Sequence record: OL739525.1 | Strand: one strand, 5' to 3' | DNA: 64,000 bases | From: Escherichia phage dw-ec | Shown: in pieces, positions 4,117 through 64,000 of the stretch | Layout: each line of letters starts with the position of its first letter | Position numbering within the stretch: the first letter of the stretch is position 1 | The notes under the pieces: model-generated | The model's input: only the letters and a program-made list of their open reading frames with translations | The model's database searches: none | What the model was told of the DNA's origin: nothing | Translations under genes and position numbers: made by a program

Positions 4117-4123
4117 AGTTTCA

Positions 4124-9447: not shown

Positions 9448-9536
9448 TGCACATTGTTTCTGGAATAGTCAAAGTTAGTAAAAGTTTATCACCTTTTCGG
9501 TTGAATATTTTATAAACTTCTCCTGCTCCATATTGT

Positions 9537-9938: not shown

Positions 9939-10158
9939 AATTTTCCTCCTGAATTCCTACTGCGCCTTCTTCTGGGTAATCTGTATAATAAGCTACCCTA
10001 CCTTGATAGATAACATCACCATCATCATTGTAGATTGCTGTATCTTCTTGAATTGTTATTTCAACGTCAAGTAAATCTGGGTCTTTCTCGATGGTATAGT
10101 TTAAACCTAACATTTCAAACAGTTCGAAAATTTCGTTACCTGTTAATGTAATGCTCAT
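9931..10158 (-). CDS. hypothetical protein (about 75 aa)
   Basis: Track ORF 9931..10203 trimmed to ATG after AGGAGG RBS; the longer start would overlap the promoter. Confidence 0.45.
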   Translation of the reverse strand: MSITLTGNEIFELFEMLGLNYTIEKDPDLLDVEITIQEDTAIYNDDGDVIYQGRVAYYTDYPEEGAVGIQEENYV

Positions 10159-10174
10159 ATTTCCTCCTTTTATT

Positions 10175-10204
10175 GTGGTTAGCAGAGTATACACTAATAT
10201 CAAA
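10175..10204 (-). promoter_or_regulatory. sigma70-like promoter (TTGACA-17-TATACT)
   Basis: Consensus hexamers on minus strand immediately after the upstream terminator. Confidence 0.5.
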
Positions 10205-10205
10205 T

Positions 10206-10229
10206 TTTTGTCAATAAAAAAGGGAGCAA
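10206..10229 (-). terminator. intrinsic terminator
   Basis: GGGAGC-loop-GCTCCC hairpin plus T-run on the minus strand after the 10245 stop. Confidence 0.55.
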
Positions 10230-10244
10230 TAAGCTCCCTGATTA

Positions 10245-11204
10245 TTAGATTCCAATAATAGTTGCTGCTCGTTTATCTTTGGATCTGGTGTTTGCTCTAC
10301 TACGTGACAAACCTCCACAAGATTCACAACGAATGATATCGAAAGAACTTACCGCAGTGTGGTATTGCTTACCAGTAACAACGTGAACATGATCACTGCC
10401 GCAACGAGAACAACGGACTTTCTCATCTGGGTAATAAGCGGATAAGTTAGGATGCTGTGGAATCCACGGAAGGATTTTCATATACAAATCACGAAGTGAA
10501 ACAACATCACCATCATTGTAAATCTGCATACGTTCAAAAGCATCACGATCACCTTCACAACATGCTTTCCATAAAGGGAACCCCTCGTTATCCAGTTTTT
10601 CACTTTCTGTTTCAAAATACGCTCCCATCTCTTTAAGAGAATTGGAAGGAAGTGCAAACTGTTTCTTAGCTGCCTTCAAGGTATCAACAACTACATAGTT
10701 AGAAGGTGGAGCCATATCATGATATGCGAAGCGTTGGTTAATGTATGCACGGTCAAACTTGTACCCATTGTGAGCCACAACAACATCAGCTTCATTCAGA
10801 AGATTCCAAAGATCTTGGCAAAGTTCCCAATCATCTGTATGATCGATATCGAAAAGAGGATAAGAAGATAAGTTCTTACCTTCTACTTCACCTGTATACA
10901 AATCAGCAGAAGAGTAAGATAACAAATAACCCCTACGAATTACCTGGTCTGGAGAAATGAAGGCTTTGAATCGACGGAAAGTATATGCAATCTCTGGTGC
11001 AGTTTCAACATCAATAATTTTAATAACTGGTTGTTTCTTTTTAACTGGCTCTTGTTTACTTGCACCGAAACGTGCAAGAAAATCATTTACTGTGCTTTTT
11101 CTTGTTGGACTACCTAAAACAATTGCTGCAATATTGCGAGAAGACATACCCTCTGCACTCATACTAAGGATATCTGCTTTCTGCTCTTCTGTTAATCTGC
11201 TCAC
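10245..11204 (-). CDS. DEDD-family 3-prime to 5-prime exonuclease with N-terminal HTH and C-terminal zinc ribbon
   Basis: IDVETA (Exo I), HNGYKFD (Exo II), YNDGD (Exo III); N-terminal sigma-region-4-like HTH; C-terminal CSRCG...CESCGG. Confidence 0.6.
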   Translation of the reverse strand: MSRLTEEQKADILSMSAEGMSSRNIAAIVLGSPTRKSTVNDFLARFGASKQEPVKKKQPVIKIIDVETAPEIAYTFRRFKAFISPDQVIRRGYLLSYSSADLYTGEVEGKNLSSYPLFDIDHTDDWELCQDLWNLLNEADVVVAHNGYKFDRAYINQRFAYHDMAPPSNYVVVDTLKAAKKQFALPSNSLKEMGAYFETESEKLDNEGFPLWKACCEGDRDAFERMQIYNDGDVVSLRDLYMKILPWIPQHPNLSAYYPDEKVRCSRCGSDHVHVVTGKQYHTAVSSFDIIRCESCGGLSRSRANTRSKDKRAATIIGI

Positions 11205-44275: not shown

Positions 44276-44748
44276 TGGCAGATTTAACTACGATCAAAAT
44301 TTCTGATCTTACACAAACAACCTCTGTGTCTGATACAGATTTCTTTGTAACAGATCAGGCTGGAATAACAAAGAAAACTTCTTTGAAAGTGCTGTTGAGT
44401 GGTGCAGGGGTAACTAGAAACCGTCTGAATGCACGGGGAACAGTAACTAGCACCTTGGCATTAGATATTAGTTCAGCAGAATATTTTTCTGCAACTTTAT
44501 CTTCTGCAACGTGCACAATTAGTTTTACTAATATTCCAGTAGCAACAAATGCAGTTTTAAACTTTACTTTAGCTTTGCGTCAAGGAAGTGGTGCAAATAA
44601 AGTCGTATGGCCTTCTTCTGTAAAATGGAGTTTTGGTCGCCCCCCAGTTTTGAGTTATCGTCAAGGTGCAACAGACACTTTTGAGTTTATCAGTTATGAT
44701 AATGGAGCAACTTGGACAGGTAGCTTAGTTTTAGCAGGAGTTATTTAA
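44275..44748 (+). CDS. hypothetical tail fiber-associated protein
   Basis: 157 aa; ORF track; coupled ATGA junctions. Confidence 0.35.
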   Translation: MADLTTIKISDLTQTTSVSDTDFFVTDQAGITKKTSLKVLLSGAGVTRNRLNARGTVTSTLALDISSAEYFSATLSSATCTISFTNIPVATNAVLNFTLALRQGSGANKVVWPSSVKWSFGRPPVLSYRQGATDTFEFISYDNGATWTGSLVLAGVI

Positions 44749-47624
44749 TGTCAAGAGTTAAGCACAATATTGACAACACGTTTCAGTTGATTGAAGGGTT
44801 GGTTCAGTTTTTGGAAAGAAATACTGGTCTTACCATAGATCCTACGGTTCAGCACTACATTATCAACCCACAAAACGTATTGGCGAACAACAGACACTTT
44901 ATTAACTGGACAGCGCAGGAAGGGCAACCAAACGGTGACGCTACTACCGAAGGTCAATCTGTGCTTATCACTGGTTTTGCTTATGCATATTTGGCTACAG
45001 GAGATAAAAAATATCTTGAATCTGCCGAGAAGTATTGGCAAGCCTATATAGATCACTTCTTCGGGGGCCAACCTATTCCTGATCCTCCAGCTAAGTATCG
45101 TCCCAACTGGATCATCAATGGTAAAGAACCACGTTTAGCACACTACCCTCTCACAGATGATGGGTATCCTACGCACGGTGGGTTCAAAGGTAGCATGATG
45201 ACTTGGATTAACGGAAGGACTGTTATTCCTAAAGGTGCGCCACATTGGGGAGAATACTTAGATAAAGCTTGGTTTGCTTTCAATGGTAATCTTGGTTGGA
45301 ACTCTGTTAACGCAACAGTGTATGCAACTAACCCAGATGGTTCAACCAACTGGAAAGAATATGGAGATCAGTGGGACGTTGAATGGATTATAGATCGTCT
45401 AGGACGTAAAGTTGATTGGGATGGTAACATTTTATCCACTGGGCATAGCTTTGCAGAATATGGAACAGTGCAACTTAAAAACGCTTCTGTGAACGGAGAC
45501 TATAAATTCAACTACGCTACATGCAATCCTGTAGAACACGGTGGATATCTGCTTAAGCGTAATGAGATGTGGCATAACCGTCCTGTAAACGTTCCGGTAG
45601 AGTTAGGTTATCAAGACAATGCTTCCGATGCTGAAACGTGGTGGTGTGATGCAAACTACTTAATGTATCAGATCACAGGAGAGAGAAAATACTGGCTTTG
45701 CTGGCAATCTTCTTTATTGTTGTGTCAAGACTACTCAAACATCGATATGTTTGATAAATTCTTCCGTAGATCTACGACAGCAATAATTCCTTTTACAGAT
45801 GGTATCTCGTATGATTACTCATACCCATCTACAGCAATACCTAAATATTCTCGTGACGAGTTAGGATACACAGTAATTCGCCAAGATGTTGCAGCACAAA
45901 CAACTCTAGAACAACAGGCAGTTTGGTTCAGAGTGGATCAGAATTCAAAACTGCGTATTGAGTTTCAAGGCGTAGATGATGCAGGGGAAGGTGTTCTTTT
46001 CCGTCCAGAGTTAGAATTAAGCAAGACTAAGAGTGAAACAGACACAGTGACATATCGTTGTGGCTTACCTCTTGGTGCAGCTAATATGACTAAGATGGAT
46101 ATACCTTTATCCAGTTTTATGCGCACTGAACCTCCTGGAGGTGGTGTATATATTATTGCCGAACCTAGAATCATTGTTGACTGGGGAAGCAATACTGTGA
46201 TACAATATAAATATGCAACTGGTATTGCTGGGACAAATAGTGATCAGATAGTTTCTGCTAATATGGATTCAGATGGTGGTTTTACTATTGGGTTTTGGTT
46301 AACACCAACTAAAACAACCAATTTAAAATCTATTACGTATCGTTCATACGCAGATGATTTTAACATCACTATTACGGATTCCGCAGGTTGGAGATGGTGG
46401 GCCATGTTAGAAAAAACAAATTCTGCATGGGTTACTAAAGCTTTAAGTCCTGCTGATTTCAAATTAAGTACTTGGCAACCTAATCACAATGACACAGAGA
46501 CAAAACCTTCGTCAATAAACCTGACTGCTGTTGATCAGATGAACATTGCATTGGATTCTGAACCTGCAAATGGCTTGACAGGGGCAATCGACTTTTATTG
46601 CGTTAACGATATCCCATCTTTGTATTCTTCAGCCGCTGGTGATGATTACACAATGTATTTCAGGGTTACAGTTTCATCTGAAAATCCTTATACAGCAAAA
46701 CTTGGAGATTGTACAATACTGGACTACAAACTTGACAGTTTGAATTATACTCCAGGAATCATCCCATTTTCCAATATTAGTGATCCTAATACAGCATTAT
46801 ATGACGGTTGGCGTGGTATTCCTTACCCAGGTTATCAATACCCATCCTTATATTGTTTTAAAGGGAGAGATATTGACTGGGTTCGTATGAACAACAGTAT
46901 AGACTTTTTATATGATTCACAAATGTGGTTTTATAATAAGTTTGCCCCTGTAATGCCTGGGCCAATGGCACAAGCTTATGTTTGGGATCGTTGGGATGCT
47001 CATAAATATGGAAACAAAAATGAGTTCACAATGTATCATTGGAACGATAAAGCTTGGGATGGTTATGAAGCAAGAGCATTCTTCTGTGCGTGTCATACGG
47101 TATACGAACTAAAGCGACGAGGAGCCGAAGTTCCTGAAAAACTTTTAACAGTTTGTAAAAACTGGATCAACTACCTGAAGTGGTTCCAAGATAACAACGA
47201 AGGAAGAACACCAACAATATTTTATCCCAACGGAGAAGTGGCTGCGCCTGTAGATGACTTTACAAGTCACATGTCTGCGCTCTTTATGGCGGGATGTGCT
47301 ATAATGGGGATGGCTGGATATGATTCAGAAATTCCTAACATTAAAATAGTAGCAGATCGCTGTTTTGAACTTATTCAGGAAAATTATATTGTTCTTGGTC
47401 CTAATCACGTTATGAATGGTTGTTGGAGTGCTGCTCCTAGACCAGACAGTGATAACGGAGTCTTCTTTGGCTTCCACGCTGGAGAGTTGTTACGTGGTTT
47501 TGGGTTGTATGCTTTATACAAAAAACTTAATCCCCAAAATGCATTACCTGTTTTGGATTCGAGCAATATTCCTGCACTTACTGTTTTGACAATGGCAAAC
47601 ATTAGTGTGGACGTTACCGAGTAA
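44748..47624 (+). CDS. large tailspike / tail fiber protein
   Basis: 958 aa, Trp/Tyr/Asn-rich; within tail module. Confidence 0.45.
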   Translation: MSRVKHNIDNTFQLIEGLVQFLERNTGLTIDPTVQHYIINPQNVLANNRHFINWTAQEGQPNGDATTEGQSVLITGFAYAYLATGDKKYLESAEKYWQAYIDHFFGGQPIPDPPAKYRPNWIINGKEPRLAHYPLTDDGYPTHGGFKGSMMTWINGRTVIPKGAPHWGEYLDKAWFAFNGNLGWNSVNATVYATNPDGSTNWKEYGDQWDVEWIIDRLGRKVDWDGNILSTGHSFAEYGTVQLKNASVNGDYKFNYATCNPVEHGGYLLKRNEMWHNRPVNVPVELGYQDNASDAETWWCDANYLMYQITGERKYWLCWQSSLLLCQDYSNIDMFDKFFRRSTTAIIPFTDGISYDYSYPSTAIPKYSRDELGYTVIRQDVAAQTTLEQQAVWFRVDQNSKLRIEFQGVDDAGEGVLFRPELELSKTKSETDTVTYRCGLPLGAANMTKMDIPLSSFMRTEPPGGGVYIIAEPRIIVDWGSNTVIQYKYATGIAGTNSDQIVSANMDSDGGFTIGFWLTPTKTTNLKSITYRSYADDFNITITDSAGWRWWAMLEKTNSAWVTKALSPADFKLSTWQPNHNDTETKPSSINLTAVDQMNIALDSEPANGLTGAIDFYCVNDIPSLYSSAAGDDYTMYFRVTVSSENPYTAKLGDCTILDYKLDSLNYTPGIIPFSNISDPNTALYDGWRGIPYPGYQYPSLYCFKGRDIDWVRMNNSIDFLYDSQMWFYNKFAPVMPGPMAQAYVWDRWDAHKYGNKNEFTMYHWNDKAWDGYEARAFFCACHTVYELKRRGAEVPEKLLTVCKNWINYLKWFQDNNEGRTPTIFYPNGEVAAPVDDFTSHMSALFMAGCAIMGMAGYDSEIPNIKIVADRCFELIQENYIVLGPNHVMNGCWSAAPRPDSDNGVFFGFHAGELLRGFGLYALYKKLNPQNALPVLDSSNIPALTVLTMANISVDVTE

Positions 47625-47632
47625 GGGGTAAA

Positions 47633-49786
47633 ATGAAACAAGCTATATTTACTGTCACGCGAGACAAGAGAGTAAATGCGAGTTCATTTAACTACACGAC
47701 TGTTGACGGAACAGCAGTCGCTGGTAGAGATTATATTGCAAAATCGGGAACACTTGTGTTCCCTGATGATGCTGATTCTGCTACTATTGTGGTTGAAGTA
47801 TTTGAACGACCAAAGAACTCAATAGATCTTAACTTCTCCCTCCAAGTTTCAGGGATTAGTCAAAATAACATGATGGTTGAAACAACCATCAATTGTATTA
47901 TAACTACTATCCAAGAAAATACTACTCCAATAACTTGGACTACAAAAGACGTTAAAATGTTCTCTCCTATGTATTGGACAATAGACTCTCAAGCAACGGA
48001 AAGTTGTTCTATTGTATCTCATGGAGACTCTTTTACTGCAAGATTTGTAAACAGAACAACAGCAGGTTTGGCAGGGGTTATCTGGAGCACAGTTGACAAA
48101 TATGATCACAAAGGTGTTGGGTATTTACCACACACAGATTTAAGTTCAGATAAACTTTGGTTTAAAATGGAAATTAGTCAAAACATGCCAGGTTTTAAAG
48201 AAGAACCTTTGGTGCCGACTTTGACTGTAACTCTCCTGGATAAAAGTGTTCATTATGTCAGTTTAGGATTCTACGCTTCGGATATTTCAGAAGATGGTAA
48301 AACAGCTACAATCAAGTTAGATTTTGGTAATATCTTTTCTGGCCCTAATAATGATATTCCTTTGGATATGAGTGCTGTAGATAATATTTTCTTCTCTTTG
48401 ATTACAGCAAGGTATGAAGAAATAGAAGAGGTTGTACCTATTGACAGTCAAGAGGCTTGGTTTACTTTCACTCTTCTTGAACCTACCTCTGGTTATAGTA
48501 TGATGAAAGTCAGCAACCTTGTCCAGCCTGAACATGATATTCGCATGTGCACATCTTATGATGATATGTATAACCTGACTCCAGAAAGAGTTATTTATAA
48601 TACATATGCGCTAGGTTATCGTGGAATGATTAACCATTACAACGGAATGTCTCACTATTATGAGTTCTCATGGAACGGAACATCTTGGGCTTTAAATAGA
48701 TCTGTTTTCCTGAATCCGGCTACAGAAGCTTGGCTAAATAGTTTCCATTCTATAGCAAACGAGAAGGGCTACACGATAATGAACTCTTTAAGTTTTGAAT
48801 TGATGAGCACAGTTTGTCCTGTAGAATGGGTCCAGCATGATTGGAACGATGCTCTTGCAGCAACAGGGTATGAACCTCCTAGTTATGTGTTGTCTCCAAC
48901 TATTGACGAAGGTATGGAATATTTGCAAAATGTTATTAATAAAATAGCATCTATTTCGCAAGCTAATAATATTCCAGTTGTCATTCAAATTGGTGAGCCT
49001 TGGTGGTGGTATAATACAGCAAGTAAAATGCCTTGCATATATGATTACACTACCAAACTGGCATTCAACACAGAAACAGGTTTATTTGCACAAGATGCAG
49101 GAACAATAGATAATTATAAAACAGGAACGCCGTTTGACGAATACTATGCATTTTTGTCTCGTAAACTAGGATTAAGAGTTACAAAGTTTGCAACAGATAC
49201 TAGAGCAACTTACCCAGGAGCCAAGGTAACATTGCTTCCGTTCTTGCCATCAATTATCGGCAACGGTTTGATGGAGAAAGTTAACTTCCCGTCTGATTAC
49301 TACATTCCTGAAGCTTTTGATTTTTACTGTTCAGAGTGTTATGACTGGCTTCTGGAAGGTAAGATGATGAAAGCATTTGATGCAATTACCATACCACATG
49401 AAAAATTAGGTTTTGAATATTCTGATATTCACTACCTTTCAGGTTTTGTTCCAGATGCTACTCTTGCACCTTTGTATGGCTTTGATCCTAAATCAAACTA
49501 CCGCACATATCTTTGGAAGATGATTATAGGTAACATAGTGTTGAACGCCAATAAGTTTGACGGACTTACACAATATATATGGGCCTATCCTCAAATAATG
49601 CATGATTCTATCACGGTAGTTAATTCTCAATCCCAAGTTTTCTATATGGGTAACGTGCCTTTGAACGTTTATTTACAGGATATCACTCTTAAACAGGTAA
49701 ATGTTGAGATTGCCACCATAAGTGGAATTACATTAGCCACTAAATCTGGAGAAGATTTAGTAACAACACAAAAATTTTATATATAG
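47633..49786 (+). CDS. tail fiber / tailspike protein
   Basis: 717 aa; ORF track. Confidence 0.4.
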   Translation: MKQAIFTVTRDKRVNASSFNYTTVDGTAVAGRDYIAKSGTLVFPDDADSATIVVEVFERPKNSIDLNFSLQVSGISQNNMMVETTINCIITTIQENTTPITWTTKDVKMFSPMYWTIDSQATESCSIVSHGDSFTARFVNRTTAGLAGVIWSTVDKYDHKGVGYLPHTDLSSDKLWFKMEISQNMPGFKEEPLVPTLTVTLLDKSVHYVSLGFYASDISEDGKTATIKLDFGNIFSGPNNDIPLDMSAVDNIFFSLITARYEEIEEVVPIDSQEAWFTFTLLEPTSGYSMMKVSNLVQPEHDIRMCTSYDDMYNLTPERVIYNTYALGYRGMINHYNGMSHYYEFSWNGTSWALNRSVFLNPATEAWLNSFHSIANEKGYTIMNSLSFELMSTVCPVEWVQHDWNDALAATGYEPPSYVLSPTIDEGMEYLQNVINKIASISQANNIPVVIQIGEPWWWYNTASKMPCIYDYTTKLAFNTETGLFAQDAGTIDNYKTGTPFDEYYAFLSRKLGLRVTKFATDTRATYPGAKVTLLPFLPSIIGNGLMEKVNFPSDYYIPEAFDFYCSECYDWLLEGKMMKAFDAITIPHEKLGFEYSDIHYLSGFVPDATLAPLYGFDPKSNYRTYLWKMIIGNIVLNANKFDGLTQYIWAYPQIMHDSITVVNSQSQVFYMGNVPLNVYLQDITLKQVNVEIATISGITLATKSGEDLVTTQKFYI

Positions 49787-49794: not shown

Positions 49795-51693
49795 ATGTCA
49801 ACTACAATTACTAATTTACCCGAAACATCAAAAGTTAATGGTTCAGATTACCTGGTTTTAGATCAACCTGATAAAACTGTTAAAAGCACAGTTTCCAACT
49901 TTCTTACTGACACTGGGGTGGTTTTAGCCACCCAGTTGAAAGATACAAATGGAGCAGATTTAATACAATCCTCAAATGGTAATACTGTTCAGGAAGAGTT
50001 GAATAACAATCTTCTTAATGATCGTGAACAGTGGCGTCGTAGTCTTGCCGAGGCTGGGTTAACTCTTGTTGATGGTAGTTTTGAAGAAGGGGCTACAGTG
50101 GGCAGTGTAACTGATGCTGTTTGGCACATTTCTGTTGGACAGTGTTATACATGGCATGGCGCTTTCCCTAAAACTGTTCCTGCTGACTCAACCCCTGAAG
50201 CATCTGGTGGTGTTGGTATTGGTGCATGGGTTAGTGTTGGAGATGCATCTTTGAGAAGCAATCTTGCATCTGATGATGGCGCGGGTCTGGTCGGATTTAA
50301 GTCGCCTCTGGCCAACTCTATTAAGCGAGCACTACATGATAAAAATAATGACCTGGTGTCAGTCAAGGACTTTGGAGTTGTTGGCGACGGTGTGACCGAC
50401 GATACCGCCGCATTTCAGGCAGCAATAGATTCGAAAAAGAGTTTATACATACCGGATGGTATTTATCTTATAAGCTCTACTTTAATCATAACTGCCACTG
50501 ATAGTTTATGTATTGTTGGTAATAGTTTTGGACATGTTAATGACCAAACAACAGGTTCAGTAATTAAGTTTACTGGGTTAGCGTCACCCGCCATTCGGGT
50601 TCAAGGTGGTGCGATAGGAGCTAAGATTTCTGGACTTTTTCTGGATATCCAGGATTCATCATCTGATGGCTTTGATTTCGGTGGGGCTTGGTATTTAAAA
50701 CTTCAAGATTGCGTTGTCAGAAACGCTCGATATGGGGTCTATTTACATTACGATAGCCCAGACTATTTTTCCGGAGTAGCTGAGCTAACTTCGTGCTATT
50801 TCGCTAAATGCGCAAATGGCGTAAAAACGTCAAAAGTAGATATCAACGTAGTTAAAGTTGATAATTGCACCTTCTTTGACGGAGTTAACGGTGTTCTTAT
50901 TGGTGACTCAGGTGCTGCAAGTAGTGTGCGAAATTTCATAGTCAGAGACTCTCTATTCGAAGCGAACACAGGTTATGACGTAGGCGTCGTCGCTGGGGGT
51001 GCGCAGCAGTTACTGGTAGATGGTAACTATTTCGAAGAGAATACCGCTTCCTCTTTAGCGAGGGTATATGTTGCAGATGATGTTCGCTCTCCGCGTTCTT
51101 CCTCGGTTTCAATAACTAACAACACGTTTAGTAAAGATACGACAGGCGACCTTGTTTTCTTGTCCGGTGTTTCCGGCGTTCTTGTTAAACAAAACTGGTC
51201 TGCGTTCGGAGGTATAGGTTTTGTACGGGCGATTAATATTGACAATTATGAGATAGATAGATGCTCCACAGTATCAGGTGCGGCTCCATGTAATGTTGTC
51301 ATAGACAACATCTTACAAGTACCGGACACTTCTGTTAATAAGATTTCTATTAACAAGGCCCAAGAATACTCGTTTATTGGGACTACTGTCGTAAAAAGGT
51401 CTAGTGCATGTACACGGGCTATGATTCAATTTAATGGAATTTCTGGGTCGTTAGTGTATGCAGACGGAGCAACTGTATCTAAAACCGGGACCGGTAAATA
51501 TACCATCAACCTATCTAATGCTTTACCCTCTTCCGCATACGCTGTTTCGTGTAGTGTCGGCAATACTACAGGCGGAGAGAAATTAGCAATTAATGTTGTA
51601 AGTACATCCGCTGGTTCTTTTAACCTTGAAGTTTTCGACCTTTCAGGGGCGTATCAGGATTCTGGATACATATCTGCCGCAGTTATTATGTAA
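49795..51693 (+). CDS. tailspike with pectate-lyase-like beta-helix (polysaccharide depolymerase candidate)
   Basis: DFGVVGDGVTDDTAAFQAAID motif typical of pectate lyase superfamily N-terminus; 632 aa. Confidence 0.55.
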   Translation: MSTTITNLPETSKVNGSDYLVLDQPDKTVKSTVSNFLTDTGVVLATQLKDTNGADLIQSSNGNTVQEELNNNLLNDREQWRRSLAEAGLTLVDGSFEEGATVGSVTDAVWHISVGQCYTWHGAFPKTVPADSTPEASGGVGIGAWVSVGDASLRSNLASDDGAGLVGFKSPLANSIKRALHDKNNDLVSVKDFGVVGDGVTDDTAAFQAAIDSKKSLYIPDGIYLISSTLIITATDSLCIVGNSFGHVNDQTTGSVIKFTGLASPAIRVQGGAIGAKISGLFLDIQDSSSDGFDFGGAWYLKLQDCVVRNARYGVYLHYDSPDYFSGVAELTSCYFAKCANGVKTSKVDINVVKVDNCTFFDGVNGVLIGDSGAASSVRNFIVRDSLFEANTGYDVGVVAGGAQQLLVDGNYFEENTASSLARVYVADDVRSPRSSSVSITNNTFSKDTTGDLVFLSGVSGVLVKQNWSAFGGIGFVRAINIDNYEIDRCSTVSGAAPCNVVIDNILQVPDTSVNKISINKAQEYSFIGTTVVKRSSACTRAMIQFNGISGSLVYADGATVSKTGTGKYTINLSNALPSSAYAVSCSVGNTTGGEKLAINVVSTSAGSFNLEVFDLSGAYQDSGYISAAVIM

Positions 51694-51726: not shown

Positions 51727-51750
51727 AACCCCTCTTCGGAGGGGTTTCCT
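51727..51750 (+). terminator. intrinsic terminator
   Basis: CCCCTC-TTCG-GAGGGG hairpin followed by TTT. Confidence 0.5.
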
Positions 51751-51770: not shown

Positions 51771-52079
51771 ATGAACGAAATGTTCTCACAAGGTGGTAAG
51801 GGTTCAACTGGAATCTTAACCAACAAACAAGCAGTAGCCCGTCACTTTGGGGTTAAGCAATCTGAGGTTGTTTACTTCTCAGTTGGTGTGGATTTGGGTG
51901 GGTATAAGGTTATCTATGATAAGGAGACGCAAAGGGCGTATTCCCTACCTGCTGATATTGCCCCAGGTACTACTGCCATTAGTCTTAGTGCTGCTGTACT
52001 TGTGCATTCAGCGGGTTCTGTAGACCTTGGGGAATTAGCTGTATCTCGTGATTTAAAAAGTAATGAGAATGCACTATGA
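51771..52079 (+). CDS. hypothetical protein (102 aa)
   Basis: ORF track. Confidence 0.4.
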   Translation: MNEMFSQGGKGSTGILTNKQAVARHFGVKQSEVVYFSVGVDLGGYKVIYDKETQRAYSLPADIAPGTTAISLSAAVLVHSAGSVDLGELAVSRDLKSNENAL

Positions 52080-56402: not shown

Positions 56403-59400
56403 ATGGCAACATTCCCAACATATCCAGCAACGTCTCTCGAACAGGGCGTAGACCTGGTTATTTTCTCATCTAACCAACTCCATGATGTTATTAATGGAAG
56501 TGCTACAGAGAGTATTGAAACAGAATCAGGGTTGATACCAACCCTGAGAAAAGCCCTTGTTGACAACTTTTTCTTTAAAAGCCCATTGGATTGGGCGCAA
56601 GGCACAAACGAAACAGTTTTTAACCAACTTCGTTATTTCCAGAATGGAGTATTGAGCGGTTATTACTATGCTCCTAACGCTACATTGGTTAACCCAATCC
56701 CTATGCAAGGGACTCCAGTAGGAGATAACAACTGGGTATTGTGGGGACTGAAAACAGAACAATTAGCAACAGAAGTCACCCCGTGGGTATACTCTGGTGC
56801 AACTGGTTATGAAACAGTAATTAGTCCTCCTTACATCTTTGATAGTGCTATTGTTACGATCAATGGTGTTATTCAGGTTCTGGGGGAAGCTTTCCGTATA
56901 GAAGACAGTAAGATCATCTTATCTGAACCTTTGGGACACGATCCTGCAACAGGACTGCCAAACAAGCTTTTTGCTTATATTGGTAAAATCGTAGCTTCAG
57001 CAGATACAGATCCTAATCTAGAGAACCGTCTTGTTAGTTTAGAAACAAAAACGGAAGAACTAACAGAAAGCATGGATAAAGTCCCTCTGCAAACTATTGC
57101 TCGTAAGTATGGTTTGTTAGATGATGAGGTGGCTTACGCAACAGCAGGTCAATCGTTAACAGGGATTAAAGCTCTGTACGATCCGGTAGCACAGTCTTCC
57201 TACACATTACCTCCTAACATCACAGGAACTTTAACATCCTTATCTGTTTCTGGAGTAATGACTTATTCTGGAGGATCTGTAGACCTTTCTGCACTGGCTG
57301 TTGAGCGTGGACAGTTTGTTCATTTGCCTACAAGCTTTGGTAATAACGTAACTCTGACAGCTAAAAATCAGACGATTGGACGTGGTGCTGGTCGTTATCG
57401 TTGGGCTGGAAGTTTACCAAAAAGTATTTTGGCCTCTGATACATTGGAGACAAGCGGAGGATTAGGTCCAAATGCATGGGTTCTGACTAATACAGAAGGA
57501 CTGTTAACCCCTCGTGGTGGAACATACAACGATCTATTCGATGTTGTCTACTTGTCAGAATTTGCTAACAATACAACTACCTATACCACACCAGAAGCAG
57601 CTTTCCAGGCGGCACTGTTAGCAGCAAAAGCTTCGAAAAGCAAGATTCTCGATGCTTACGGTTGCGACATGACTTTCACGACAAGCTCTTTTGATATTCA
57701 AGATATCACTTTGCGTGGTGGTGTGTTCCGTGGTCAACGCGACTATCGTGTGCAGAATGCTACAGTAGAAGGCACAACTTTCCGTAACTCTCGTGTTATG
57801 TATTGGGGTGGTGCTGTGCGCATGTTCGATTGTTTGTGGGACGGTGCTCCTCGCGCAGGTCAAGTTGGTAGCTTGGTATTCCAAGGCAACCCAATATCAG
57901 GTACTTTTGAAATTGATAATTGTACTTTTAAAAACGGGTTATATGGTATTCTTCAACAAGGAACAGGGGAACCAGTAACACGCGGTGTCTTCCGTAACCT
58001 TACCTTCATGGACATGCAAGGTGATGCAATAGAACTGAACGTCATCAATAAACATTATGACGATGGTTGTGTGATTGAGAATATTTACCTGTCTAATATC
58101 GATGGGACTAACGCTCCTATTCCTCTGTCCAACTGGGGTATCGGTATCGGTGTAGCTGGTAAAGGACCATATGGTTACGGAATCCCTGATGATCAATATT
58201 GTAAGAACATTACAATTCGTAACGTTTTTGCAAAACGTTGTCGTCAGATTGTCCACGTAGAAGTTGGTCGTAATATCTCTATCGAAAACATTCATGGCGA
58301 TCCAGATCAAACCGTATCTGTTGGGACAGGTTTGGCAACTGGCGCAGTTGTAATGTATGGAAGTAAAGACTTTACGATTGATGGTGTTTATGGAGAGCCT
58401 AAAACAGACGGTAGCACACTTGCAAGTAATATCCGTATGATTTACTTGGAGTGGGGAACTAACGCAGTTCTGGATGAAGAGGGTAATCCGGTAGTTCCGG
58501 CACAGGGCAGACCTTCAAACCCATGCTTTAACTATTCTGTTCGTAACGTTCACACCAAAACTGGGCGTGTTTTTGCGGGAGTTTCCGCTGGGCCAGGTTA
58601 TGAAAACAGAGTTAGCTTTGAAAATATTCGTTGCGCTGCCTTGCAGTTGTTCGGTATAGCTTCTTGGCTTTCAATGTCTAACATCACCTGTAATATCTTC
58701 GATTGTGTTGGTCAACCTGAATCTGGTCCAGGGACATTTTATGATGGATTCTTCCGTAGAGAAAAATCTGTTCTTGAAATGGTTAACGTAAACTGTTACC
58801 CAGATGGCAAGACGATGGTTACTGGTCGTCCACAGTGGAGCCGTTGCCGTTACTCGGATATTCATCGTGTCAACTGTAATGTTGAAGCTAATATGTATAC
58901 CAATATCGCAGGTGGTATTGGAGCTATTGTAGGGACAACGGGCAAAGTTTATTACTTAGAGCCTAATCCTAGTCGAAACATTGATGGAATGCATTTCCCA
59001 ACAGGGAAAGAGTTTGACAAAGGGGATATGATAGTCAAGGCGGATAATACGTTCTTCCTTGTAACAACAAGTGGGGCATATATTCCAGATATCCCAGCTT
59101 TCGGTATTCGAGCTACACAGGCAGGAGATACCTTCCTGACACAGAACTTGACTCCTAACGGGACAGCAACAAATGCTTCTTGGTTGTATCATTACCCTCT
59201 GTCAGCAGGGACACGTATCCGTATTCCTGGCGCTGGTGTAGGTGGAGCAGATTTGGACACAGTTATTACTCGTGCACCTTATCAAGATAATGATACGTGG
59301 ACTAACCCAGTTAAAATAGACATTGCAGATCCAATTGTAACGCCTACAAGTGCTGGAGTTAGAATTAAAACCATACCTAATGATTCCAGTAATGTTTCTG

Positions 59401-59456
59401 TAGGTAATACTGCGGTTATTCGCCCAACGCCAGTAGTAGATGTGCCAACAACCTAA
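56403..59456 (+). CDS. large tailspike protein
   Basis: 1017 aa; Gly/Asn/Thr-rich repetitive central region. Confidence 0.45.
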   Translation: MATFPTYPATSLEQGVDLVIFSSNQLHDVINGSATESIETESGLIPTLRKALVDNFFFKSPLDWAQGTNETVFNQLRYFQNGVLSGYYYAPNATLVNPIPMQGTPVGDNNWVLWGLKTEQLATEVTPWVYSGATGYETVISPPYIFDSAIVTINGVIQVLGEAFRIEDSKIILSEPLGHDPATGLPNKLFAYIGKIVASADTDPNLENRLVSLETKTEELTESMDKVPLQTIARKYGLLDDEVAYATAGQSLTGIKALYDPVAQSSYTLPPNITGTLTSLSVSGVMTYSGGSVDLSALAVERGQFVHLPTSFGNNVTLTAKNQTIGRGAGRYRWAGSLPKSILASDTLETSGGLGPNAWVLTNTEGLLTPRGGTYNDLFDVVYLSEFANNTTTYTTPEAAFQAALLAAKASKSKILDAYGCDMTFTTSSFDIQDITLRGGVFRGQRDYRVQNATVEGTTFRNSRVMYWGGAVRMFDCLWDGAPRAGQVGSLVFQGNPISGTFEIDNCTFKNGLYGILQQGTGEPVTRGVFRNLTFMDMQGDAIELNVINKHYDDGCVIENIYLSNIDGTNAPIPLSNWGIGIGVAGKGPYGYGIPDDQYCKNITIRNVFAKRCRQIVHVEVGRNISIENIHGDPDQTVSVGTGLATGAVVMYGSKDFTIDGVYGEPKTDGSTLASNIRMIYLEWGTNAVLDEEGNPVVPAQGRPSNPCFNYSVRNVHTKTGRVFAGVSAGPGYENRVSFENIRCAALQLFGIASWLSMSNITCNIFDCVGQPESGPGTFYDGFFRREKSVLEMVNVNCYPDGKTMVTGRPQWSRCRYSDIHRVNCNVEANMYTNIAGGIGAIVGTTGKVYYLEPNPSRNIDGMHFPTGKEFDKGDMIVKADNTFFLVTTSGAYIPDIPAFGIRATQAGDTFLTQNLTPNGTATNASWLYHYPLSAGTRIRIPGAGVGGADLDTVITRAPYQDNDTWTNPVKIDIADPIVTPTSAGVRIKTIPNDSSNVSVGNTAVIRPTPVVDVPTT

Positions 59457-59517: not shown

Positions 59518-61542
59518 ATGAATTTAACAAGACCTAATAGTGCGATAGCCGATCTGGTAGAAGCTACTTATCGAAAACGTCGCAGCTTTGAGGCAGGTTT
59601 TACATTACGTAATTCCCGTGAAGTTTTGCTGTTAGCAGCAGAAGGGAATTATTACCAATGGAAAGGAACTTTTCCTAAAGTTGTTCCAGCAAACTCTACG
59701 CCAGCCACCACAGGTGGTATTTCTTCCCTTGCATGGCAAAGTGTTGGGACCGCTGATGATATAGCAATTATCAATGCCAAGTTTACGGCAATGCAGCAAC
59801 AGATTGATGATCTGTCGGAAACAATACCTGAAGCTGGTAAATCGGCTTATCAGATCGCACTTGATAATGGTTTTGTTGGAACAGAAGCACAATGGCTTGC
59901 TTCTTTGAAAGGGGATACTGGTGCTCAACTTAATATTAAAGGATCATTAGCAAACACTAGTGAACTACCATCCACAGGTAACGTTGCAGGGGATGGTTAT
60001 ATCGTAGGTGATGTAATCTACGCTTGGGACGGTTCTGTTTGGAAACTTATTTCTTCTCTTGGGCCAGAAGGTAAATCAGCTTACGAGGTATGGTTGGCAG
60101 ATGGTAATACAGGATCTGTTTATGATTTTCTTACCTCTATAAAAGGTGATAAAGGTGATGTTGGTCCTACAGGGCCACAGGGAGCACCTGGTGTTAACGC
60201 CAACGGTTTTGATTATCGTGGGGATTTGCCTTCTACAAGTAACTTACCACAACCAAACTCTGAAAACGTAAGTCAAGCTTATTCTATCAATGGTAATCTT
60301 TATGTCTCTAATGGGACAGCTTGGGTCAACATGGGTAATATTGTTGGTCCTCAAGGTCCACAAGGTGAGGCAGGTAAAGACGGTCTTGATGGAACAGATG
60401 GAGATGAAGGGAAATCTGCATATCAAAGTTGGCTGGATGCTGGTAATGAAGGGACAGAAGTAGATTTTATTGCCTCACTTAAAGGTCCAAAAGGAGACAA
60501 AGGTGATCAAGGAGAGCGAGGTCCACAAGGTGAACTAGGTCCACAAGGACCAGTGGGTGCAACAGGATCAGGCTTAGATATTATCGGGGTTCTGAACAGT
60601 GAAGCTGAACTTCCTCCTACCGGAGAAGTAGGTGATGCATATAAAATTAATAATGATTTATATGTTTGGGTTCAAGATGCTACGGAATGGATGAATGTTG
60701 GCAGTCTTGGAGGAACATCAATTACAGCTAAAGGTCATGTTCCGAACAGTGAAGCTCTCCCTGTTTATAATAACTATGGCGATGCCTACTTAACTGAAGA
60801 CACTAGTAATCTTTACATCTATACCTACGATCAAGACACCAATTCCGCATCTTTTGTTGACATGGGAAGTATTAAAGGCGACAAAGGTGAAAAAGGGGAT
60901 AAAGGAGATAAGGGTGATCCTGGAACAAACGGAACCAACGGTACTGATGGGACCAACGGTAAGGACGGCGCACAGTGGTTTGTAGCAACAACTAATCCAG
61001 TTGCAGGAGACGGTGTTATCAATGATTACGCCTTCAATACTACCACTGGAGCAGTGTTTAAGAAAACAGATTCTTCTACGTGGACGCTTATAGGCACTCT
61101 TCCTAGTATACCAGAAGCCCCTCAAGACGGCTTGACGTATGGTCGGTCTGATGGAAACTGGATCGAAATATCAGGATCAGATCCTACGGAAGCTATAACA
61201 CCAACTAGAGTTACAGCAGGTTTCATGGAACTTGAAACAACTGCTGCCAACTCTGGAGCATCTTGGACTCCTTCTGGAACTTCCAATATGTATGTTGTTA
61301 CAGTAACTGATGCTCTGACAGTTGGAGCATGGCCTGGTGTCACTGGCTCTACAAAACCTAAAGCGTTTTCAGCAATGATTTATTTGATTCAAGATACAAC
61401 GGGACACACGGTTACACTAGATGCGTCTTATGGAGCACTAAATGATACAGAAATAGCAACTGCTGCTAACGCAGTAACAATTTTGCAATTAACGTATCCT
61501 GGTGTGGGTGATATCGTGGACATGGTTGTTGTAACACGATAA
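59518..61542 (+). CDS. tail fiber with collagen-like Gly-X-Y repeats
   Basis: Multiple G-X-Y runs (GDKGDVGPTGPQGAPG; GPQGPQGEAGKDGLDGTDGDEGKS; GDKGEKGDKGDKGDPGTNGTNGTDGTNGKDG); 674 aa. Confidence 0.55.
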   Translation: MNLTRPNSAIADLVEATYRKRRSFEAGFTLRNSREVLLLAAEGNYYQWKGTFPKVVPANSTPATTGGISSLAWQSVGTADDIAIINAKFTAMQQQIDDLSETIPEAGKSAYQIALDNGFVGTEAQWLASLKGDTGAQLNIKGSLANTSELPSTGNVAGDGYIVGDVIYAWDGSVWKLISSLGPEGKSAYEVWLADGNTGSVYDFLTSIKGDKGDVGPTGPQGAPGVNANGFDYRGDLPSTSNLPQPNSENVSQAYSINGNLYVSNGTAWVNMGNIVGPQGPQGEAGKDGLDGTDGDEGKSAYQSWLDAGNEGTEVDFIASLKGPKGDKGDQGERGPQGELGPQGPVGATGSGLDIIGVLNSEAELPPTGEVGDAYKINNDLYVWVQDATEWMNVGSLGGTSITAKGHVPNSEALPVYNNYGDAYLTEDTSNLYIYTYDQDTNSASFVDMGSIKGDKGEKGDKGDKGDPGTNGTNGTDGTNGKDGAQWFVATTNPVAGDGVINDYAFNTTTGAVFKKTDSSTWTLIGTLPSIPEAPQDGLTYGRSDGNWIEISGSDPTEAITPTRVTAGFMELETTAANSGASWTPSGTSNMYVVTVTDALTVGAWPGVTGSTKPKAFSAMIYLIQDTTGHTVTLDASYGALNDTEIATAANAVTILQLTYPGVGDIVDMVVVTR

Positions 61543-61583: not shown

Positions 61584-64000
61584 ATGTTTCCAATTCCAAT
61601 ATTTACTATTATGACCAGCACTGGTGTCGTTCCTCTGCCAGCGGGTATTGTTAAAAAAGTAATCACTTTAGATTACCCAGATAATGCTGGTAATTCTAAC
61701 AGCAGTTTAGCAATTTTGCTTAATGATGGTAGATTGTTTACTCAAGGCGCAAACCTTTTTGGTGAGATTGCAGATGGAACTCGTAGTGCACGATTCAATA
61801 ATTTCCACTTAGCTTCTACTGTAGTAGCGGATGTGTTTACCGCAGATCGTTGTTTTGTTATTAAAACTAACAGCGGGGGATGGCAATATTCAGGATTGAC
61901 AGCAGGGTTGGTAGGATCTATAGCAGCAGGTGGTACGGATGCATGTGTAACTACTTGGACCAGCTTTCCATCTGTAATAACAGGGACTATCTCTTTAGCC
62001 AATCTTAAAGAGGTTAAAGGAGGGTATAACAATACTCTTTGGTTAATGAATAGCGGTGTTCTTTATGGATCGGGTCAAAACACAGTAGGCAGTTTAGGTG
62101 CAAGCACTACTAACGAAGTTTCTACTCCCCGTCAGATAACAAGTTCAGCAGTTGCTTTTGATGCAGGTTATAACCAATGCTCTTATGTCAACAATGCGGG
62201 AACCTTGCGTGTTTGTGGAGCTAGTAAAGGTTTAGCAGGTAATAATAACACAACAACCGCTTTTGTCAATGCCACGATATCCACTACTGAAACAGTGTAT
62301 GTCAAAGATTACATCAATACAGTTTCCCAGACAATAGTTGTAGGAGATACCTCCGGTGGCGCGGGTACAGTAAACTACTTATATGTTAGATCTAATACAG
62401 AAACAACCTACACTAAACTGGACACCTTTGCAGCAGGTTTCTCAACATGGAAATTTCCACCAAGCCGCCACTCTTTTTTCGTTGGGATCAATAATTCCTT
62501 GTGGGCTATTGGTAAGAACTACACTGCAAACTTAGGTTTGGGATATGATTCTGCGAGCGGAGATCCACTCCAAGTGGGAAAACCAGTTAAACCTGAAGGA
62601 GTGGGTTCCTGGGATATAAACAAGCTCACAAGCGTTCATACGTTGAATATGGATATTACTAACCAATTAGGTTATCAAGGAACCTTTTTCGTTTATAACG
62701 GGGATATGTATTATTCCGGTATTTGGAAAGATGGGAAAGCCTCGTATCTGTTCAATAGTGGTCTAAACTATAATAAATTCACACCAATAGCAAGCTCCGT
62801 GATTACGGGGGATGTTCTGGCAACTGGCTTAACTACAGATTCTTTAGGAATTTGTATTGTAGGTGGAACTAAACAGTTGACACATTCTGTTAGCCCAGAA
62901 GGAGGTAAACTTTTCAATATTAAATACACTTCTTCTGCCCCTGCAAACATGACAATATCATCTACTGGTTTAATGACTTTCCATGCAGAAGGTGGTTTTG
63001 ATGCAGGTATGACAGCCTTAAACGCTGAAGGAACAACTTTATCAGATACCTCTGGAGGATATGCTTCAACATTGAGTGTTTACACCCCTAGCTTATCTGC
63101 GATGGATGTAGGAACAACACAAACAATGGTAGCAGAAATAACGCCAACAGGAGCAGCAAGCTTACCTGGTATGGTTGTTGAGTATACAACTACAGATCCT
63201 AATGTTGCTACAGTAGATCCTACAACTGGTGTAATAACTGGTGTTGGTGATGGTGGTTGTAGAATTGGTTGCACAGCTACATATCAAGGTGTTGTTACCG
63301 CTTCTGATAGTTCTTATTTAACGGTGAACGCTGTTGCGGGAAAGGAGTTAGCTCCATCTCCGAGTAGTAGTTTAACGGTTCTAAACGGATATTTCAACCA
63401 CTCGGCAGATGGGGCAATTACGTTCCCAATTTTATCGGGTACTGTCACACCAGCTAACTTTGTAGTTAAGGTGGATGACGTTGTAATACCTTCAAATAAA
63501 GTAATATTTAGAAATAAAGCTTTCTCTACAGTGGATAGTTATCCAGCAGGAGAATATAGACTGGCTATTGAATTTGCAAGTGCTTCAGTAGTGAATAGTG
63601 TTGATGTGTCTATGGAAGCAAATCCAGATCTTTTAGAATTATGGGGCGGCAACAGAATTGGTTATTCTACAAGCCCAGCCTCACAATTCTTAAAAGGTTG
63701 TGCTAACTTAAGACGAATAACTTCTGATTGTTTTAGTAACACATCTTACACCGGAACATCTATAAGTGGTATCTTCTCTGGCTGTACAAGTTTGACAGCT
63801 ATCCCTGAAGGATTATTCAGTGATGCTTTATTTCCTTCAATGACAACAATGTCAAGCACGTTTGAAGGTTGTACATCTTTAACATCTATTCCTTCAGATT
63901 TATTTAAAAATCTATCAAAAGTTACAAGATATTCTTACACCTTTAAAGATTGCACCTCTCTTGCAGAAGTTCCAGCAGGAATGTTTGATAATATTCCAAC
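61584..64000 (+). CDS. large tail fiber / adhesin, 3-prime partial (Ig-like and BspA-type leucine-rich repeat segments)
   Basis: Frame open from ATG at 61584 to window end; Big_2-like segment (TTDPNVATVDPTTGVITGVGDGG); repeated F..GCTSLTSIP LRR-like units near the end. Confidence 0.45.
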   Translation, partial: MFPIPIFTIMTSTGVVPLPAGIVKKVITLDYPDNAGNSNSSLAILLNDGRLFTQGANLFGEIADGTRSARFNNFHLASTVVADVFTADRCFVIKTNSGGWQYSGLTAGLVGSIAAGGTDACVTTWTSFPSVITGTISLANLKEVKGGYNNTLWLMNSGVLYGSGQNTVGSLGASTTNEVSTPRQITSSAVAFDAGYNQCSYVNNAGTLRVCGASKGLAGNNNTTTAFVNATISTTETVYVKDYINTVSQTIVVGDTSGGAGTVNYLYVRSNTETTYTKLDTFAAGFSTWKFPPSRHSFFVGINNSLWAIGKNYTANLGLGYDSASGDPLQVGKPVKPEGVGSWDINKLTSVHTLNMDITNQLGYQGTFFVYNGDMYYSGIWKDGKASYLFNSGLNYNKFTPIASSVITGDVLATGLTTDSLGICIVGGTKQLTHSVSPEGGKLFNIKYTSSAPANMTISSTGLMTFHAEGGFDAGMTALNAEGTTLSDTSGGYASTLSVYTPSLSAMDVGTTQTMVAEITPTGAASLPGMVVEYTTTDPNVATVDPTTGVITGVGDGGCRIGCTATYQGVVTASDSSYLTVNAVAGKELAPSPSSSLTVLNGYFNHSADGAITFPILSGTVTPANFVVKVDDVVIPSNKVIFRNKAFSTVDSYPAGEYRLAIEFASASVVNSVDVSMEANPDLLELWGGNRIGYSTSPASQFLKGCANLRRITSDCFSNTSYTGTSISGIFSGCTSLTAIPEGLFSDALFPSMTTMSSTFEGCTSLTSIPSDLFKNLSKVTRYSYTFKDCTSLAEVPAGMFDNIP

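Follow-up and report, generated by a model that had tools for sequence, protein, structure and literature searches.

The motif shared by three receptor-binding proteins of a phAPEC8-like coliphage is the known tailspike domain D2, a probable coupling module

The head parts of phage tailspikes are known, among others, from CBA120 and G7C, whose spikes contain a small sub-domain named D2 or TD2. In TSP1 and TSP3 of CBA120 it covers aa 97-154 and is followed by the neck helix (155-168), and its ~60 aa fold into one helix and a small antiparallel beta-sandwich, three of which assemble around the axis of the spike. Docking in CBA120 has been attributed to D1/TD1 (TD1 onto XD3) and not to D2/TD2. 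Similarly, in the virion structure of Sf11 the gp13 spike is held by helices of aa 4-59, D2 lies downstream of them at ~aa 61-125, and aa 162 is the site of a hinge. Some tail proteins carry arrays of 4-5 D2 copies. The literature commonly counts D2 within the "head-binding/anchor domain", and the functions of D1 and D2 have not been separated by experiment, so D2 may also add to partner binding. Two further systems are relevant here. The model of the phiTE long tail fibre (LTF) places its N-terminal region on the baseplate at wedge 2A and the sheath initiator, and in the cryo-EM study of phi92 the proteins gp150 and gp151 could not be fitted into the fibre II density. On the DNA level, Pas et al. 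(2023; Virol J 20:174) report conserved DNA motifs, with consensus lengths of 44 and 95 nt, that flank receptor-binding domains and which they propose as recombination hotspots; the genes are followed by a terminator motif that is likewise conserved.

The whole stretch of DNA analysed here, a window of 64,000 nt, belongs to a phAPEC8-like E. coli myophage (Phapecoctavirus), and three of its receptor-binding proteins, P1, P2, and P3, are compared in the following (Table 1). The initial annotation had pointed to a motif common to P1 and P3 and had read it as a conserved N-terminal adapter that fixes different receptor-binding modules to the same baseplate site. The motif is located as claimed and in frame in both genes, at aa 117-149 of P1 (CYTWHGAFPKTVPADSTPEASGGVGIGAWVSVG, encoded by 50143-50242) and at aa 45-77 of P3 (YYQWKGTFPKVVPANSTPATTGGISSLAWQSVG, encoded by 59650-59749), with 19/33 residues identical. 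BLASTP with composition-based statistics aligns P1 95-151 with P3 23-79 (57 aa, 46% identity, 51.2 bits, E=9e-11), hence the similarity is statistically significant, and it finds no second significant segment between the two proteins, which are otherwise unrelated as had been stated. A third copy had been overlooked: aa 332-360 of P2 read YRWAGSLPKSILASDTLETSGGLGPNAWV and match P1 with E=7e-6 and P3 with E=7e-4. When the six-frame translation of the whole window was searched with an HMM of the three copies, it matched these three alone, a fourth copy not being found there (next best E=1.8). On the opposite strand, an ORF at 50145-50366 overlaps the P1 motif; it was judged spurious, as the plus frame is strongly homologous throughout.

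Table 1. Coordinates of the receptor-binding genes, their domains and the adjoining elements in the window
Feature	Position	Strand	Description or basis
P1, variable tailspike, 632 aa	49795..51693	+	anchor aa 1-54, linker, D2 aa 93-150, neck, pectate-lyase-like beta-helix
P1 D2/TD2 (aa 93-150)	50071..50244	+	PF18668 3.4e-19; C-terminal two thirds formed by motif 50143-50242
GC-rich hairpin CCCCTC-ttcg-GAGGGG, just after P1	51729..51744	+	read from sequence
102-aa ORF, D1/TD1 domain alone	51771..52079	+	83% identical to YX22 tailspike aa 1-94
P2, colanic-acid-degrading tailspike, 1017 aa, phi92 gp150 homolog	56403..59456	+	PHROG 6117 6.7e-283; PDB 6e0v (phi92 gp150) 1.5e-78
P2 baseplate anchor, aa 10-114	56430..56744	+	Pfam PF26208 Phage_phiTE_241_N label from homologs
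P2 putative gp10-like XD domain, aa 122-178, candidate docking site for another trimer	56766..56936	+	profile matches
P2 D1/TD1, aa 230-300	57090..57302	+	P2 aa 230-372 to 4qnl aa 20-172 (9.3e-30) and 4oj5 aa 20-190 (6.2e-28)
P2 D2/TD2, aa 302-361, third motif copy	57306..57485	+	PF18668 2.4e-9, 37.6 bits
P3, collagen-repeat tail fibre, 674 aa, phi92 gp151 homolog	59518..61542	+	PHROG 15437; 60% identical to gp151
P3 D2/TD2, aa 7-88 (HMM; Pfam match 12-77), first domain, then predicted helix	59536..59781	+	PF18668 1.3e-19; 9vvr 1.9e-13

The shared motif is part of a known small tailspike domain, the D2/TD2 head sub-domain, which is represented in Pfam by PF18668 (Tail_spike_N). P1 and P3 reach 69.1 and 70.5 bits, respectively, and like P2 lie above the gathering threshold of 25 bits. 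All three copies align to the crystallised D2 of CBA120 TSP1, TSP3, and TSP4; with TSP1 (4oj5) the alignments pair P1 aa 91-169 with aa 99-174 (9e-16), P3 aa 22-80 with aa 102-158 (1.3e-6), and P2 aa 230-399 with aa 20-190 (6.2e-28). Altogether, the solved D2 domains matched are those of 4oj5, 5w6f, 5w6h, 4qnl, 8x8m, 9occ, and 9vvr, and with several crystal and cryo-EM structures and a Pfam family at hand the motif itself is nothing new. An AF2 model of P3 aa 1-130 made from the single sequence (mean pLDDT 55.7) has a helix at 8-19, strands at 37-48 and 73-78, and a helix at 79-100. PF18668 is widespread, with 2339 clusters (50% identity) at E<=1e-3 and 1399 representative clusters at E<=1e-10. 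Among the 150 best representatives its start varies between residue 2 and ~400, and its contexts include a position after the T7-fibre N-domain in a podophage, after D1 in Ackermannviridae, and after a short helical N-terminus in Bas80, a 47-kb phage with lambda-like tail genes. Scanning IMG/VR with P3 aa 1-135 mostly returned a widespread "GKSAYQ...WL.SLKG" fibre repeat and not D2. Given a short segment with many G, P, S, and T residues, one could think of chance or low complexity, or else of a recent duplication or gene conversion in this genome. The first of these options has to face the pairwise E-value, Pfam scores of 37-70 bits, and the large number of clusters just mentioned. The second is ruled out by the DNA, as the likeness is one of protein sequence: in the motif region the DNA of P1 and P3 is 63% identical with a longest exact run of 8 nt, and among all copies identity is 51-63% with exact runs of <=10 nt, so the copies must be old. 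We therefore give this explanation practically no weight.

Across P1, P2, and P3 the PF18668 domain is located between the particle-binding region and the neck with the receptor-binding body, and what stands ahead of it differs. P1 aa 1-54 constitute an anchor that is found genus-wide and is 94% identical to aa 1-54 of the phi92 endosialidase gp143. P2 has the layout anchor, XD-like domain, coiled coil, D1, D2, and beta-helix from ~aa 426, and its aa 11-127 are homologous to the N-terminus of the phiTE LTF (9cuy_g aa 14-132, E=2.7e-19), a type of anchor present in 394 phage records. No known anchor precedes D2 in P3, and both P3 and gp151 of phi92 begin with D2. The adapter idea thus stands in part: the shared domain is a virion-proximal module of otherwise unrelated receptor-binding proteins, and it is N-terminal in P3, but it is internal in P1 (from aa 93) and in P2 (from aa 302). 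The idea of a common baseplate site is not supported, as the segments upstream of D2 are unrelated and those of P1 and P2 each match a different known anchor. The phi92 proteins at the same loci point in the same direction. At the P1 locus, gp143 has no PF18668 and instead combines endosialidase domains with the P1-type anchor; at the P2 locus, gp150 gives no D2 match, though its anchor is kept (aa 1-215 are 75% identical to P2, and the catalytic domain is also common to both). Since gp143 and gp150 retain their anchors without D2, the domain appears dispensable for attachment at these two loci. Attachment specificity is accordingly predicted to lie outside D2, namely in aa 1-54 of P1 and in aa 10-114 plus the putative gp10-like XD domain of P2. 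It is unlikely that D2 itself plugs all three proteins into equivalent sites of the baseplate or of a common scaffold. That D1 and D2 are lumped as a "head-binding domain" and that ~12 of the 150 best representatives begin with D2, as do P3 and gp151, would be in favor of such a role, but in P1 and P2 the domain sits behind unrelated anchors, gp143 and gp150 of phi92 do without it, the in-situ anchor of Sf11 is upstream of D2, and docking in CBA120 is ascribed to TD1.

D2 is rather an ordinary, known building block between the virion attachment part and the host-binding part than a new anchor. We assume that it acts as a generic coupling ("shoulder") module, which follows the virion-fixing element and precedes the helical neck and the receptor-binding body. 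Taken as one joint claim, that the shared segment is the core of D2 and that D2 is a generic coupling module, a seam at which bodies are swapped, and a docking surface in P3 alone, this reading has in our estimate a probability of about 70%. A different role, as an auxiliary carbohydrate-binding module that lends each spike a weak generic affinity for glycans, could be deduced from the Pfam name, which implies "receptor binding". We regard it as rather improbable: according to a tailspike paper there is no report of a head domain that binds glycans, D2 sits at the end of the spike next to the virion and remote from the substrate, and the conserved aromatic residues could just be what so small a fold needs for its core.

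The presumed function of D2 as a seam, the second part of the coupling-module reading, can be followed in P1. While the P2 gene is conserved at full length in 69 phage records and the P3 gene in 69/70, more than 80% of the P1 gene is matched in just 1/88. Its Pfam match PF12708 lies at aa 188-250, and the beta-helix begins at aa 188. P1 aa 94-632 are 89% identical to the tailspike of the Ackermannviridae phage YX22, and the N-termini differ; as judged from this alignment, D2 and the body of P1 are derived from an Ackermannviridae-type spike. In megablast searches with the P1 gene, the alignments of 12 of the 40 sampled records stop at nt 438-476, others start at nt 358-378 (that of YX22 at nt 358), and Bas77, Bas80, and ST0223 match at nt 369-459 only, with 89-91% identity. 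Such breakpoints at the motif hold for P1 and not for P2 and P3, which are conserved throughout the genus. The 123-nt motif DNA is present at 555 places in 395 phage records (74-90% identity), which span Kuttervirus, Kayfunavirus including K1F gp17, Bas77/78/80, and Sashavirus; it is located at the 3' end of the anchor-coding region and is more conserved across phage genera than its flanks. As an independently folding unit whose DNA is conserved even across unrelated phages, D2 probably marks a seam for swapping receptor-binding bodies, and such exchange would be what is visible in the hypervariable P1. This fits the published junction idea as far as P1 is concerned, and DNA presumably equivalent to this motif was previously suggested to be a recombination hotspot (Pas et al. 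2023). The hairpin directly behind P1 could be a terminator and at the same time the downstream boundary of a swappable cassette, and it was not flagged by a consensus terminator scan. The D1 ORF that follows is 43% identical to D1 of P2 (E=2e-16), shares 82-86% nt identity with PhaxI, SKML-39, pSb-1, and Pollock tailspike genes at their 5' ends, and is present, shortened, or absent across Phapecoctavirus genomes. It resembles what would remain, at the 5' end, of a second tailspike gene of the Ackermannviridae/Gamaleyavirus type that came in together with the P1 body. With the parts that hold each fibre on the virion now indicated, points for exchanging the P1 body are marked after aa 150 or after aa 54, which is relevant to host-range engineering of broad-host-range therapeutic coliphages.

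P3 is the exception among the three proteins, as D2 comes first and is there probably the docking surface. The likeliest partner would be the XD-bearing N-terminal module of P2, which is encoded immediately upstream. A profile of P2 aa 118-194 from 5 homologs matches 9k4a (2.1e-11), the tail adaptor 7y22_e (2.4e-6), and Gp49 in 9d83 (1.3e-5) in the PDB, and aa 19-66 (XD2) of CBA120 TSP2 (6w4q) with 0.0028; AF2 modelling of P2 aa 1-230 from a 9-sequence alignment gave a pLDDT <50 over residues 117-230. A word-indexed homolog search with P2 aa 1-230 yielded 8 proteins and led to an adaptor-only homolog on a metagenomic contig (L087). This protein of 232 aa consists of anchor, XD, and coiled coil only and is 59% identical to P2 aa 1-227, and 16 nt behind it starts a fibre of 867 aa, which has D2 in first position and 50% identity to P3. 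In the rV5-like phage EmilHeitz and in phiTE, a single fibre joins a P2-like anchor to a P3-like tip. These arrangements suggest that P3 may dock on P2, the case being built from the order of genes and the logic of their domains among related phages, which are not phylogenetically independent. As a possible, still tentative scenario for phi92- and phAPEC8-like phages, P2/gp150 and P3/gp151 might form a two-branch complex, in which an ancestral rV5/phiTE-type fibre of anchor, shaft, and tip was split, the anchor gained a gp10-like XD domain, and the tip half re-attaches via its N-terminal D2. If so, docking through a leading D2 would give a novel function to a domain that has until now been seen as a passive element of the head, and P3/gp151 riding on P2/gp150 would identify the "fibre II" density of the phi92 baseplate.

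Compared with the described systems, the three proteins combine known parts in different ways. Regarding exchange, ~91 nt are conserved here and 95 nt in "motif two" of Pas et al. (2023), which is presumably the equivalent; the genera agree as well (Kutter-, Kayfuna-, and Kaguna-like phages, Justusliebigvirus), as does a hairpin or terminator downstream, whereas Phapecoctavirus is outside the set of that paper and exchange is found here in P1 only. Regarding the domain, D2 belongs to the same family as in CBA120 TSP1, TSP3, and TSP4 and in G7C gp63.1 (4OJ5, 5W6F, 5W6H, and 4QNL; phmmer E 1e-6 to 1e-16), although the phage carrying the three copies is a member of Stephanstirmvirinae and of neither Ackermannviridae nor Gamaleyavirus. 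As in those spikes, D2 of P1 and P2 is directly ahead of neck and beta-helix, and in P2 it is preceded by D1; in P1, however, it follows a 92-aa segment unrelated to D1, and in P3 it comes first, with a coiled coil and a collagen-like fibre behind it in place of the beta-helix. The Sf11 tailspike gp13 (PDB 9OCC) has the same D2 (E=6.8e-20 vs P1) directly behind its anchoring helices, but Sf11 is a siphophage and the anchor of its spike binds the distal tail protein. Regarding branched complexes such as those of CBA120 TSP2/TSP4 and G7C gp66-gp63.1, the predicted order XD, D1, D2, neck, and beta-helix in P2 is TSP2-like, its XD-like segment matches XD2 of TSP2 and adaptor or branching proteins by profile, and the neighboring gene encodes a fibre that has no anchor of its own. 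In contrast to these complexes, P2 has one XD-like domain only and in addition its own phiTE-type baseplate anchor, and its complex with P3 is a prediction from genomic context. Where the partner spikes of CBA120 and G7C start with D1/TD1, P1 starts with the gp143-type anchor and P3 with D2, the 102-aa fragment being the sole D1-first product. The phiTE LTF (PDB 9CUY), in which no D2 match was detected, has its anchoring N-terminus in common with P2 and its C-terminal tip in common with P3, and it unites both in a single polypeptide.

P1 (a variable tailspike), P2 (a colanic-acid-degrading tailspike) and P3 (a collagen-repeat tail fibre) are encoded in the right-hand third of the window, where baseplate and fibre genes form a plus-strand block. 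phAPEC8-like E. coli myophages, among them vB_EcoM-Ro121c4YLVW, ETEC-TG and phAPEC8, are 97-99% identical to the window and belong to the genus Phapecoctavirus, subfamily Stephanstirmvirinae. The initial annotation had described a motif common to P1 and P3, which is found exactly where it was placed (19 of 33 residues identical), while a third copy in P2 (aa 332-360; E=7e-6 against P1, E=7e-4 against P3) had escaped it. A search of all frames of the window with an HMM of these copies gave no fourth one. BLASTP of P1 against P3 gave a significant match of 57 residues with 46% identity (E=9e-11) and no other significant segment, so that the two proteins are indeed otherwise unrelated, as had been claimed.

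Coordinates of tail-protein genes and related features in the window
Feature	Position	Strand	Size	Remark
phi92 gp141 homologue	44748-47624	+	958 aa	
phi92 gp142 homologue	47633-49786	+		Calx-beta, PF23844 and PF23845 domains
P1	49795-51693	+	632 aa	
Motif copy in P1	50143-50242			P1 aa 117-149
GC-rich hairpin	51729-51744			after P1, before D1-only ORF
D1-only ORF	51771-52079	+	102 aa	just a D1/TD1 head domain
P2	56403-59456	+	1017 aa	
P2 part homologous to single-fibre end	56403-56792			P2 aa 1-130
P3	59518-61542	+	674 aa	
Motif copy in P3	59650-59749			P3 aa 45-77
P3 part homologous to single-fibre end	61204-61539			P3 aa 562-674
Right-most ORF	61584-64000	+	>805 aa	continues past window end

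All three copies exceed the gathering threshold of PF18668, titled "Tail spike TSP1/Gp66 receptor binding N-terminal domain" in Pfam (P1 aa 93-150, P2 aa 302-361, P3 aa 12-77), and align to the solved tailspikes CBA120 TSP1 (4OJ5, aa 99-174), TSP3, TSP4, 4QNL, 8X8M, 9OCC, 9VVR, 9D80 and 9LNA. CBA120 nomenclature divides the head into D1 (aa 13-96) and D2 (aa 97-154), alternatively named TD1 and TD2; behind them come a neck helix (aa 155-168) and a beta-helix body. By this alignment, the shared motif corresponds to D2. The feature is thus an already known domain in new members, and the family comprises 2339 clusters (50% identity) at E<=1e-3 and 1399 at E<=1e-10. At the DNA level the copies share 51-63% identity with exact runs of at most 10 nt, which indicates that they are old and have been kept at protein level, rather than arising by recent duplication or conversion. 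Chance similarity and recent duplication are excluded by the E-value of 9e-11, the PF18668 scores, the 1399 clusters and the 51-63% DNA identity. Some tail proteins (P0002, P0006, P0008) carry two to five tandem D2 copies, with 4-5 in some cases; another, P0001, is a T7-like fibre N-terminus concatenated three times in exact copy, probably an artefact of assembly.

It had further been proposed that the motif is an N-terminal adapter attaching different proteins to the same baseplate site, a reading that finds support in part. For P3 the position fits, since P3 begins directly with D2, whereas P1 and P2 carry anchors ahead of D2, and the segments upstream of D2 are mutually unrelated in all three proteins. 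The endosialidase gp143 of phi92, from the same locus as P1, is 94% identical to P1 over aa 1-54, then carries endosialidase domains, and contains no PF18668 match; likewise, phi92 gp150 is 75% identical to P2 aa 1-215 and has a homologous colanidase body, but no match to D2. P2 aa 11-127 and the N-terminal part of the phiTE long tail fibre are homologous (E=2.7e-19); the in situ model of that fibre places its residues 14-171 on wedge 2A and the sheath initiator. This anchor type occurs in 394 phage records of rV5-, phi92- and phiTE-like phages as well as Aeromonas and Vibrio phages. In the virion of siphophage Sf11, helices of tailspike gp13 (aa 4-59) are bundled with a distal tail protein helix and hold the spike; its D2 (about aa 61-125, aligned to P1 with E=6.8e-20) follows these helices, and a hinge lies beyond it at aa 162. 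In CBA120, docking is assigned to TD1 binding XD3, a T4 gp10-like domain, and TD2 is given no role. Elsewhere D2 stands behind quite different anchors: podophage ST0223 has a T7 fibre N-domain in front of it (D2 at aa 155-211), Bas80 a short N-terminus (D2 at aa 63-123), and the Ackermannviridae phage YX22 a D1 domain (D2 at aa 90-155). Among the best 150 representatives of the family it starts anywhere from residue 2 to about 400. Attachment of all three proteins by D2 itself is therefore contradicted. This comparison argues against D2 as the anchor of P1 and P2; overall, D2 behaves like a general-purpose coupling module instead of a plug for one particular site. For a carbohydrate-binding role, which seems unlikely, the fold resemblance and the conserved aromatics are the sole hints. 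The phi92 gp150 (L005, the phi92 sequence, 2864-5278; 804 aa) is 213 aa shorter than P2 and lacks the D1-D2 head located between coiled coil and beta-helix in Phapecoctavirus P2, and the catalytic domains of both are only 33% identical although the anchors share 75%.

In about 70 Phapecoctavirus genomes, P2 and P3 are conserved over their whole length; P1 is hypervariable, only one of 88 matching records covering >80% of the gene. Breakpoints of similarity in P1 are concentrated in two places: gene nt 150-170, where the 54-aa anchor common to all phAPEC8- and phi92-like phages ends, and nt 438-476, where D2 ends. The YX22 match runs from nt 358, the start of the motif, through the stop codon (89% protein identity to P1 aa 94-632, with different N-termini), and the unrelated small phages Bas77, Bas80 and ST0223 match only nt 369-459 (89-91% identity). 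The 123-nt motif DNA is found at 555 places in 395 phage records with 74-90% identity, among them K1F gp17 and Kuttervirus genomes (up to three places in one genome). D2 would accordingly appear to be a recombination seam in P1, the one gene for which this is shown; the pattern agrees with the conserved DNA motifs beside receptor-binding domains for which Pas et al. (2023) proposed a role as recombination hotspots, an equivalence that we infer from position, length and taxa. The homologues of phi92 gp142 and gp141 next to P1 are together a candidate for the arm bearing it (fibre I in phi92); PF23844 and PF23845 of the former are "non-contractile tail sheath" N and TIM-barrel domains, yet the phage tail is contractile.

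The D1-only ORF downstream of P1 shares 83% identity with the N-terminal end of the YX22 spike, and its DNA matches the 5' ends of tailspike genes from Ackermannviridae and Gamaleyavirus with 82-86% identity; among Phapecoctavirus genomes it is present, shortened or absent. It is probably left over from a tandem tailspike cassette that was imported, but could alternatively be expressed as a small trimer able to fill an XD docking site. It stops 9 codons past the D1/D2 boundary and overlaps the start of the next gene (ATGA).

Several observations lie beside these genes. The GC skew turns from negative to positive near 22000, coinciding with the switch from minus- to plus-strand genes. The right-most ORF combines an RCC1-like beta-propeller with Big_2 Ig-like domains, is without D2, and is probably another lateral fibre; its position resembles that of the intimin-domain fibre of rV5-like phages. 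Several "Campylobacter phage" records (B15, A110a, C15, C3, D#; including MG065650.1, MG065689.1 and MG065654.1) are 96-99% identical to E. coli Phapecoctavirus or rV5-like phages over the genes compared here, and their host labels look doubtful.

The most interesting outcome is the hypothesis that P3, or gp151 in phi92, docks on P2, or gp150. D2 is the only N-terminal element of both P3 and gp151 (60% identical to each other), which start directly with it. The rV5-like phage EmilHeitz, whose fibre locus contains no D2, has a single 581-aa fibre (bas49_0040; L086, its sequence, 8986-10731), which joins a P2-like anchor (aa 6-112, 44% identical) to a C-terminal tip resembling that of P3 (aa 477-581, 51% identical), and the phiTE long tail fibre (9CUY chain g) shows the same combination. 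In Stephanstirmvirinae anchor and tip are divided between two adjacent proteins, which therefore look like the two parts of a single ancestral fibre, now encoded by separate genes. On L087, a 135-kb metagenomic myophage contig (10001-13318), the P2 homologue has only 232 aa (59% identical to P2 aa 1-227), consisting of anchor, XD-like segment and coiled coil without any receptor-binding part; 16 nt after its gene follows an 867-aa D2-first collagen-like fibre, 50% identical to P3, and no other D1 or D2 is found within 20 kb on the contig. This looks like a natural adaptor-plus-fibre arrangement, most simply read as the 232-aa protein being the adaptor and the D2-first fibre its obvious cargo. 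Judging from this gene order in related phages, it seems likely that P2 receives P3 at its N-terminal module, with the leading D2 of P3 as the contact. The point bears on the 2026 phi92 cryo-EM study, which could neither assign fibre II nor locate gp150 and gp151. PDB 9D84 contains both Gp49 (XD-like aa 206-270) and Gp48 (D1-D2 head aa 20-160); it may represent an XD-head complex with a solved structure and could serve as a useful template. The extra segment of P2 (aa 122-178) matches adaptor and branching proteins in profile searches (9K4A, 2.1e-11; tail adaptor 7Y22, 2.4e-6; 9D83 Gp49, 1.3e-5), as well as CBA120 TSP2 aa 19-66 (0.0028), which falls inside XD2, through which TSP2 has been shown to bind TSP4.
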